Shown: piece by piece, positions 23,643-46,690 of the stretch
Layout: each line of letters opens with the position of its first letter
Position numbering within the stretch: the stretch's first letter is position 1
From: Escherichia coli
GTDB lineage: Bacteria; Pseudomonadota; Gammaproteobacteria; Enterobacterales; Enterobacteriaceae
DNA: 64,000 nucleotides
Assembly: GCF_003334765.1 (NCBI RefSeq)
Contig: NZ_QOWT01000008.1
Direction: 5' to 3' (one strand)
The notes under the pieces: model-generated
The model's database searches: none
What the model saw: only the letters and a program-made list of their open reading frames with translations
Told to the model about the DNA's origin: nothing
Position numbers and translations under genes: made by a program

Positions 23643-23826
<184 letters not shown>

Positions 23827-34544: not shown

Positions 34545-35528
<984 letters not shown>

Positions 35529-35610
35529 GCGTTTCTGATTCATTGATTAAAGGCCAGGCAGTAACATTACTGACTGGCCTCAGATTGTTGACCAAGTGCG
35601 CGTTGTACAC

Positions 35611-35708
35611 GCCGGATGCGGCGTGAACGCCTTATCCGGCCTACGAAATCGTGCTAATTCAATATATTGTGGGCTCCACGTAGGCCTGATAAGCGTAGCG
35701 CATCAGGC
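35611..35708. repeat. BIME (two inverted REP palindromes around a spacer)
   Basis: GCCGGATGCGGCGTGAACGCCTTATCCGGCCTAC ... GTAGGCCTGATAAGCGTAGCGCATCAGGC; same element type recurs inverted at 46542-46639. Confidence 0.75.
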
Positions 35709-35767
35709 AGTTTTGCGTTTGTCAGCACTCTCAGACCAGCCAGTAACATTACTGACTGGCCTTTTTA

Positions 35768-37072
35768 TTACTTCTGCTTTAACGCCGCATACACCTGATC
35801 AACTACCCAACCATAAGTTGCAATCGGCAACTGACCGCTTTCGAACATATTGGGATTCTTTTGCGGATCGGCAACCGGCGAATGTGGCTTGTTGCTTAAC
35901 ATCACAATCGTCATATGATTCACCGGATCGATAACGGTCACCGTTCCGGTCCAGCCAGTGTGACCGTAGGTTTGCGGGCTTGCCAGCGTGCCAAACGTCG
36001 GCGTCATGGTGGCATTACCATTCACGCGCCAGCCGAGGCCAAAAGTGGCATCTTCCTTAGAGCTGGTGGTGAACATCTTCACCGTTTCCGCATTGAACAG
36101 CTGCACATCACCATAGCCCCCGCCGTTCAGCATCGTTTGCATTAACACCGCAATATCGCCGGTATTGGAAAACAAACCTGCGTGCCCGGAAACGCCGCCC
36201 ATCGAATAAAAGGCTTTTTCATCGTGCACCTGACCCCAGAGAGTGGAGGTGCGGATATTCGGGAAATGGATCACGCCATCGCGGGTATTGCCGTTCAATT
36301 CCGTGGCGGCAATTTGTTGCGGTTTAAAGCCTTTCAGCAGCGGGTTAAATACCGTATGTGTCAGGCCGAGCGGGCGATAAATCGACTCTTCAACATAGCG
36401 GTCAAGCGGCTGACCGGTAACCGACTCGACGATAAATCCAAGCAGCATATAATCGACATCGCTGTAGATATGTTTGCTGCCGGGCTGATATTCCAGCGGC
36501 GTGCGCTTGATCATCTCCAGCGTCTGGCCTTTATCCTGGGAATATAACGCGCCCGCGACCGCTTTATTCGGGTATTGCGGATCTGCCGGGAAACCGCCGC
36601 TGTGATGCAGCAGGTCAGAAATCCGCAGGGTGTTTTTGCCTTTAATGGTGTCATTTGGACTATCGGCAAACCCCGGAATATATTTCGCAATCCGATCGTC
36701 AGGATGCAGTTTGCCTTCGCTCATCAGCTTTTGCAGGGCGAAGTTCGTGGCGTACATTTTGGTGTTTGAGGCCAGGTCATACAGCGTCCCGGTGGTGGCT
36801 TTGACAGGCTGTTCCATCAACACGCTGCCATCGTACTTTTTCGCCGCTCCCCAGGCTTTGCGATACACAATCTGATTATCTTTAATGATCAGCAGGTTTA
36901 CGCTGGGATAACCGACATCAACTTGCTGGCTAATCCAGCGATCCATCTGGTTAAGCCGTTCGACGTTAAACCCTGCTTTCTCTGGCGAGCTTTCTGTCAG
37001 AACAGGGTATTTTGCGGCGCTGACGCTACAACTAACAGCCAGCAGAGAAAGATAGAGCATTGTCCGTTTCAT
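35768..37072 (-). CDS. yfeW: penicillin-binding protein 4B (class C beta-lactamase-like DD-peptidase)
   Basis: Internal start MKRTMLYLSLLAVSCSVSA gives 434 aa with signal peptide; start choice moderately certain. Confidence 0.85.
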   Translation of the reverse strand: MKRTMLYLSLLAVSCSVSAAKYPVLTESSPEKAGFNVERLNQMDRWISQQVDVGYPSVNLLIIKDNQIVYRKAWGAAKKYDGSVLMEQPVKATTGTLYDLASNTKMYATNFALQKLMSEGKLHPDDRIAKYIPGFADSPNDTIKGKNTLRISDLLHHSGGFPADPQYPNKAVAGALYSQDKGQTLEMIKRTPLEYQPGSKHIYSDVDYMLLGFIVESVTGQPLDRYVEESIYRPLGLTHTVFNPLLKGFKPQQIAATELNGNTRDGVIHFPNIRTSTLWGQVHDEKAFYSMGGVSGHAGLFSNTGDIAVLMQTMLNGGGYGDVQLFNAETVKMFTTSSKEDATFGLGWRVNGNATMTPTFGTLASPQTYGHTGWTGTVTVIDPVNHMTIVMLSNKPHSPVADPQKNPNMFESGQLPIATYGWVVDQVYAALKQK

Positions 37073-46502: not shown

Positions 46503-46541
46503 GGATTAATAGCATCGGAGACTGATGACAAACGCAAAACT

Positions 46542-46639
<98 letters not shown>

Positions 46640-46690
46640 ATAAACAAAGCGCACTTTTTTAACAGTTGTTGCTGCCGACAAATGCAGTAT

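Follow-up and report, generated by a model that had tools for sequence, protein, structure and literature searches.

Between the convergent genes yfeX and yfeW of Escherichia coli, a BIME stands between two copies of the same short hairpin, which raises the question of whether the element duplicated the hairpin when it integrated. How REP and BIME elements spread is still termed unresolved (PMC8266576; a 2026 preprint). We analyzed this locus within a 64,000-nt stretch of E. coli DNA (contig NZ_QOWT01000008.1; hereafter the window), for which an earlier note had likened the paired hairpins to a target-site duplication. This likeness was borne out, as the repeats start at the element ends, empty alleles have one hairpin, and the same footprint recurs at most BIME-1 loci sampled. 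We conclude that one complete 152-bp BIME-1 probably integrated into a bidirectional terminator-like hairpin common to yfeX and yfeW, and that the whole 28-30 bp palindrome was copied as its target-site duplication.

Organization of the yfeX-yfeW intergenic region

The window is DNA of the K-12 type. The 541 bases around the spacer are 100% identical to E. coli MG1655 in the reverse orientation, and the BIME-1, a single unit in K-12, lies outside the genes, between the two convergent stop codons (Table 1). The two hairpins bracketing it have the sequences previously described: H1 reads GGCCAGGCAGTAACATTACTGACTGGCC at 35552-35579 and H2 reads CCAGCCAGTAACATTACTGACTGGCC at 35736-35761, with TTTTT directly after it. 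A repeat search delimited them as a 30-nt direct repeat (35551-35580 and 35733-35762) that is identical at 28/30 positions (93%) with a start-to-start spacing of 182, and 100 shuffles of the window gave an expectation of 0 matches to the 26-nt hairpin pattern. Either strand of each copy forms a hairpin (-11.3 to -20.8 kcal/mol, z -3.4 to -6.5). A simple consensus terminator scan applied to H1 and H2 flagged neither, because the stem has an internal mismatch; both are stable hairpins with T-runs, TTTTT for H2 and TTTAAT for the reverse complement of H1. We infer a terminator role from the hairpin, the T-run, and the position between convergent stop codons, with H1 likely serving as the candidate yfeW terminator on the minus strand and H2 likely as the candidate yfeX terminator. 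The Rfam search of the region returned no family matching H1 or H2.

Table 1. Features of the yfeX-yfeW locus and position of the second BIME-1 unit in the window
Feature	Position	Strand	Basis and remarks
yfeX (porphyrinogen peroxidase) CDS	34629..35528	+	stop codon 35526-35528; ORF list and RefSeq annotation of identical DNA
H1, left copy of duplicated target hairpin	35551..35580	.	TTAA before it on the + strand; TTTAAT after it on the - strand
Left terminus of BIME-1 unit, CAGATTGTTGACCAAGTGCGCGTTGTACAC	35581..35610	+	imperfect terminal inverted repeat of the right terminus; common to fepA-entD and other copies; matches YPAL terminus
Y-type REP (palindromic unit)	35611..35644	+	pattern matches and alignment to other copies
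L linker, putative IHF-type site ATTCAATATATTG	35645..35679	+	one mismatch to IHF consensus WATCAANNNNTTR, read from sequence
Z1-type REP	35680..35708	+	inverted relative to Y REP; pattern matches and alignment
Right terminus of BIME-1 unit, AGTTTTGCGTTTGTCAGCACTCTC	35709..35732	+	alignment of copies; information content; YPAL match
H2, right hairpin copy	35733..35762	.	two mismatches to H1; then TTTTT (35762-35766)
yfeW / pbp4b (PBP4B) CDS	35768..37072	-	convergent with yfeX; start inferred from 1305-nt RefSeq feature
Second BIME-1 unit	46518..46669	-	downstream of cysM; inverted relative to the first; degenerate left terminus, without flanking hairpin repeat

We then delimited the element itself. 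The BIME had been placed at 35611-35708, and the REP core of Y, L, and Z1 is indeed there, but the repeated element is longer: it comprises 152 nt at 35581-35732, from CAGATTGTTGAC... to ...GTCAGCACTCTC, and its conserved flanks abut the hairpins directly. In genomes without the insert, the best match to it was the fepA-entD intergenic BIME-1, with ~90% identity across bases 1-153 of a 156-base query, so the mobile unit extends beyond the REP core. Each terminus is an imperfect inverted repeat of the other (12/16 by eye, 14/24 in the computed comparison), the L-linker motif GTGCTAATTCAATATATTG was found exactly, and H1, the element, and H2 together (212 nt) fold as one long hairpin (-54.3 kcal/mol, z -8.1). 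The REP core and its inverted copy at 46542-46639 were both present, and Y, L, and Z1 recur there in inverted form, in agreement with the claim that this second BIME has the same REP types. Compared with their counterparts at 46.5 kb, the Y and Z1 REPs show 0-1 mismatches each, and both can be aligned to the fepA-entD copies.

The only Rfam match in the region was ES036 (CssrF sRNA), located in the L linker of the 46.5-kb BIME-1 (46563-46605, minus strand; 40.9 bits against a gathering score of 37.6), and this model may simply describe a BIME-1 linker. Elsewhere in the window, two Y-like REPs 100 bp apart (23692-23825, minus strand), with 2-3 mismatches to the Y REP, make up another BIME, distinct from the BIME-1 type.

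Filled and empty alleles and the age of the insertion

We examined the locus in 5426 complete E. coli genomes. The full hairpin-BIME-hairpin arrangement was present in 1401 of them, and in the remainder either the locus was 182 bp shorter or yfeW was deleted (1272 genomes). The earlier note had proposed counting the hairpins in genomes lacking the BIME, and we found one hairpin in every allele sampled, at a locus shortened by 182 bp, the sum of the unit (152) and the second hairpin copy (30). In each of the four BIME-less alleles that were aligned (T2, 28Eco12, BL21, and Ecol_656), a single hairpin, AAAGGCCAG.CAGTA....ACTGACTGGCCTTTTT, stands directly between the two genes, and H1 is identical to the lone hairpin of strains T2 and BL21. 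Two hairpins without a BIME were not found among the genomes sampled (5426 complete genomes searched and four BIME-less alleles aligned).

The genomes with a yfeW/pbp4b deletion (1272/5426) include BL21 and strain C. In these genomes, ~45 bp of the yfeW 3' end is left beside the hairpin and yfeX adjoins murP.

The same locus is also occupied in other species, with one BIME-1 unit in E. whittamii, two in Escherichia sp. E1V33, and seven in Escherichia sp. MOD1-EC7003. In the last of these (contig NZ_PTRE01000114.1), seven tandem 182-bp units of hairpin plus BIME-1 are followed by an eighth hairpin at the end. The copies in the three species have the same orientation and share the locus-specific variants GACCAAG, GTACAC, and GTCAGCA; their identity to the K-12 element is 96.7-98%, and that of the flanking coding DNA is 91.7-97.8%. 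Given these shared variants and this level of identity, the copies have one origin, and the insertion is therefore either of long standing or passed from one lineage to another. Neither Salmonella nor Citrobacter bears on polarity, because both lack the yfeW-mur cluster; an unrelated terminator follows yfeX in both. BIME-1 is usually described as single, a description from which the tandem arrays of two and seven units at yfeX-yfeW depart.

The earlier note had implied the opposite polarity, namely that the K-12 allele arose through a recent insertion event in E. coli and that the single-hairpin alleles represent the untouched ancestral state. The long allele is in the minority (1401/5426), its insert is at least 99% identical in 1403 records, and single-hairpin alleles occur in backgrounds up to ~7% diverged, all of which would agree with a recent event. 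We nevertheless regard such an event as unlikely. The copies with common variants at the same place and in the same orientation in E. whittamii, E1V33, and MOD1-EC7003 argue against it, as does the element identity set against that of the flanks, which points to one old insertion or introgression with later losses via the 30-bp repeats; in addition, both loop variants of the hairpin occur in filled as well as empty alleles. The orthologous copies in three other Escherichia species thus suggest an old insertion followed by repeated loss via the direct repeats, and many of the single-hairpin alleles of E. coli may be such losses and not untouched sites. Whole BIME-1 elements are reportedly lost in natural isolates.

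Hairpin duplication at independent BIME-1 loci

A pattern scan of one genome per species yielded 105 loci from E. albertii, E. whittamii, two Escherichia sp., two divergent E. coli genomes, and three Pseudocitrobacter species. After the copies had been aligned on their termini and orthologues removed, 36 independent loci remained across Escherichia and Pseudocitrobacter. These 36 non-redundant copies, together with the closest paralogue at fepA-entD, set the unit as CAGATTG...GTCTC with sharp boundaries, the information content being 1.5 bits per position inside and 0.2 outside.

As a control for flanking repeats, we paired left and right flanks taken from different loci and used the 99th percentile as the cut-off. 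Flanking direct repeats exceeded this control in 24/36 loci, with a median score of 13.5 compared with 6. At 22 loci, the repeats were 15-30 nt long (median 20.5) and started exactly at the element ends. These anchored repeats are GC-rich hairpins that differ from locus to locus, the centre of most of them falls within ~1 nt of the dyad, and the sequence is T-rich downstream in 16 of the 22 and A-rich upstream in 11. Both genera contributed anchored repeats, at 12/20 loci in Escherichia and 10/16 in Pseudocitrobacter. The other 12/36 loci had no clear flanking repeat, which we assume to reflect the decay of old repeats; across the copies, identity of the element to the consensus did not correlate with repeat quality (rho 0.10, p 0.57). 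These comparisons support hairpin duplication as a likely general property of BIME-1, seen at about two thirds of the independent loci sampled.

Several observations from the survey concern the copies themselves. Pseudocitrobacter copies are 95% identical to their consensus, compared with 90% in Escherichia, and their flanking repeats are perfect in 5/10 cases, figures that suggest more recent BIME-1 activity in that genus. A BIME-1 variant with a shorter right end recurs every 162 bp, and its spacer, GGGTGAGGGATAACCTCACATCC, is another hairpin-like sequence. Escherichia sp. MOD1-EC7003 also carries a tandem array of about eight 115-bp units, each consisting of a Y REP, an L linker, and a Z1 REP but lacking both the BIME-1 termini and the hairpins; this is an amplification mode other than that of the hairpin-spaced arrays. 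Exact BIME-1 cores were also detected on very short or MAG contigs assigned to Desulfosporosinus, Methylobacterium, Bacteroides, and Collinsella, most likely as a result of enterobacterial contamination or mis-binning.

Matched empty sites were obtained at three further loci. At yhaH-yhaJ, the empty site has one hairpin and the filled allele is longer by 174 bp (152 + 22); at yvcK-uvrB, the empty site holds exactly one hairpin; and at yqjF-yqjG, the empty allele with one hairpin is in the majority, while one strain has two tandem units. BLAST searches with reconstructed empty sites for the fetched loci found only the empty sites already known, and for the E. whittamii locus near argG, which is too diverged from E. 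coli, no empty site was obtained. The proposed tie between hairpin duplication and the BIME is strengthened by these three additional empty sites, by the one-hairpin alleles at yfeX-yfeW, and by the recurrence of the arrangement with other hairpins at most BIME-1 loci.

Tandem arrays of hairpin plus element occur both at yfeX-yfeW and at other loci, and they invite an explanation in which the hairpin repeat has nothing to do with integration and a segment of hairpin plus BIME that was already in place underwent local tandem duplication or unequal recombination. Arrays of 2 to 7 identical units, as well as REPIN clusters that include flanking sequence in Pseudomonas fluorescens (PMC3116915), would be in keeping with it. 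Such a process would, however, yield two elements, and to arrive at one element between two hairpins, a further precise deletion would have to be assumed at every one of 22-24 independent loci; moreover, the repeats begin exactly at the conserved element ends, and empty sites retain one intact hairpin. We consider this origin improbable and retain duplication of the hairpin at integration as the preferred reading.

The earlier note had further proposed that the inverted BIME-1 copies at 35.6 kb and 46.5 kb act as recombination sites that invert the mur-ucpA-cys segment. The two copies are mutually inverted and ~90% identical over ~140 nt, a homology that is short and imperfect. In a search that tests fixed arrangements, the predicted junction was found at 80% query coverage or more in 0/5426 complete E. 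coli genomes, the best matches stopping at the BIME end, and 1401 of ~1403 element-carrying records were collinear across yfeX-BIME-yfeW. The inversion thus failed this search, and we judge it very improbable. A chance likeness between H1 and H2, or the convergence of two separate terminators, can be dismissed even though convergent genes often have one terminator each, since the copies agree at 28/30 positions including the asymmetric loop, no random matches are expected, and the element-less allele has a single hairpin.

Comparison with known repeat elements

In its composition, the yfeX-yfeW element belongs to BIME-1/RIP/RIB of E. coli (Gilson 1991; Oppenheim 1993; Boccard and Prentki 1993), having a Y REP, an L linker with an IHF-type site, and a Z1 REP, and lying extragenically at gene 3' ends. 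The printed sequence of the 103-nt RU-3 (Delihas 2007, PMC2759123) is the Y-L-Z1 core of BIME-1, and its target duplication has been entered as '?' (Delihas 2008, PMC2229807). Whereas the accessible BIME literature treats a REP pair plus linker as the unit, the unit found here spans 152 nt, has terminal inverted repeats, and is accompanied by a duplication the size of a hairpin.

YPAL/RU-2 of Yersinia is, like BIME-1, non-coding, strongly palindromic, and 150-170 bp long. The termini of the two also match (TGAGGTTATTGACAAAGTGC against TCAGATTGTTGACAAAGTGC and TTGTCAGCAGTCTGA against TTGTCAGCACTCTCA), with 17/20 and 13/15 positions identical when the RU-2 sequence printed in Delihas 2007 (PMC2759123) is used. 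In-register terminal matches that strong are rare among random 24-mers, occurring at a frequency of 2e-4 for at least 15/24. The interiors are unrelated, so that the termini alone align with the YPAL consensus of ~168 bp; that of BIME-1 consists of the Y and Z1 REPs and the L/IHF linker, unlike that of YPAL, and the hosts differ as well, Yersinia for YPAL and Escherichia and Pseudocitrobacter for BIME-1. Many YPAL targets are said to overlap terminator-like sequences. The target duplications of the 168-bp YPAL/RU-2, in the summary of De Gregorio 2006 given by Delihas 2008 (PMC2229807), are variable, 3-26 bp long, and span or adjoin dyad symmetries. We found the same trait in BIME-1, with variable-length duplications over a dyad that measure 30 nt at yfeX-yfeW and 15-30 nt at the 22 anchored loci, and with empty sites at four loci. 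On the sequences compared, the relationship of BIME-1 to YPAL is one of shared ends and shared behaviour, not of membership of YPAL proper.

REPINs mobilised by RAYT/TnpA_REP (Nunvar 2010; Bertels and Rainey 2011; Ton-Hoang 2012) resemble BIME-1 in being inverted REP doublets able to form a long hairpin, and both occur in tandem clusters that take in flanking sequence (PMC3116915). The IS200/IS605 transposases, a family related to TnpA_REP, are described as making no target duplications (PMC3333891). In contrast to the single-strand mechanism of that type, a duplication of 15-30 bp is the rule for BIME-1, and the duplication-free insertion expected of RAYT/IS200-IS605 elements is contradicted by hairpin-sized duplications at 22-24/36 loci. 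The accessible REP/RAYT literature reports no target duplications around REP elements; the 1990s BIME papers and the YPAL paper lie outside that scope, so an earlier description is possible.

Classical MITEs (Correia/NEMIS, ERIC, and RUP) share with BIME-1 the terminal inverted repeats, a target duplication, the non-coding character, and a location in 3' untranslated regions (PMC2229807). Some Correia elements contain an IHF site, comparable to the putative site of the L linker (PMC2229807). The duplication of Correia/NEMIS, ERIC, and RUP is a short fixed TA (PMC2229807), whereas the length of the BIME-1 duplication is set by the target hairpin.

A proposed model for integration into terminator-like hairpins

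These features could be explained if breaks fell symmetrically on the two strands, in equivalent positions and with one at each foot of the palindrome. A structure-specific enzyme would make a staggered cut in the extruded hairpin or cruciform, and the overhangs would then be filled in. Symmetric breaks at the hairpin feet would account both for the centring of the repeat on the dyad and for a repeat length that follows that of the hairpin. After insertion, the T-run-adjacent hairpin of each gene would lie on the far side of the element, so that both transcripts would read through BIME-1 and then terminate; the insertion would be tolerable because a hairpin with a T-run is kept for each direction. 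The two hairpin copies would then serve as substrates for recombination or slippage, giving alleles with 0, 1, 2, and 7 units. Integration into terminator hairpins would also explain why BIME-1 is found at gene 3' ends, and the hairpin-duplication footprint why BIME-1 loci vary in copy number between strains.

The obvious candidate for the enzyme is the REP-associated transposase TnpA_REP, whose gene tnpA_REP (yafM) is encoded in E. coli, outside the window. This protein cuts at C|T near REP hairpins in vitro. In the aligned copies and their flanking repeats, the C|T dinucleotide was not consistently present at the BIME-1 junctions, and we therefore rejected the TnpA_REP cleavage motif as a junction signature.

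The leading model of REP/BIME spread borrows the duplication-free single-strand mechanism of IS200/IS605. Judged by its flanking repeats, the BIME-1 footprint does not fit this canonical model, which argues that the model is incomplete. As a tentative proposal, BIME-1 and YPAL might form one superfamily of palindromic elements whose integration is directed by structure: an extruded terminator hairpin would be cleaved symmetrically at its two feet, and the whole hairpin would be duplicated. The reaction would be carried out either by RAYT, acting on both strands in a non-canonical way, or by an enzyme that has yet to be connected with REPs. If true, such a superfamily and hairpin-foot cleavage would add a transposition mode that has not been described for REP-type elements. 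The defined 152-bp ends, integration into a terminator hairpin, duplication of the whole hairpin, and YPAL-like termini together supply an assay, in vivo or in vitro, with a concrete target and a product to expect.

Other insertions were also observed next to this hairpin. In E. coli strain 98227, an IS200C copy lies directly after the T-run of the single yfeX/yfeW hairpin, and in another strain (F5656C1), IS1 is present in the yfeX-yfeW spacer. The yfeX/yfeW hairpin region appears to draw several kinds of insertion.
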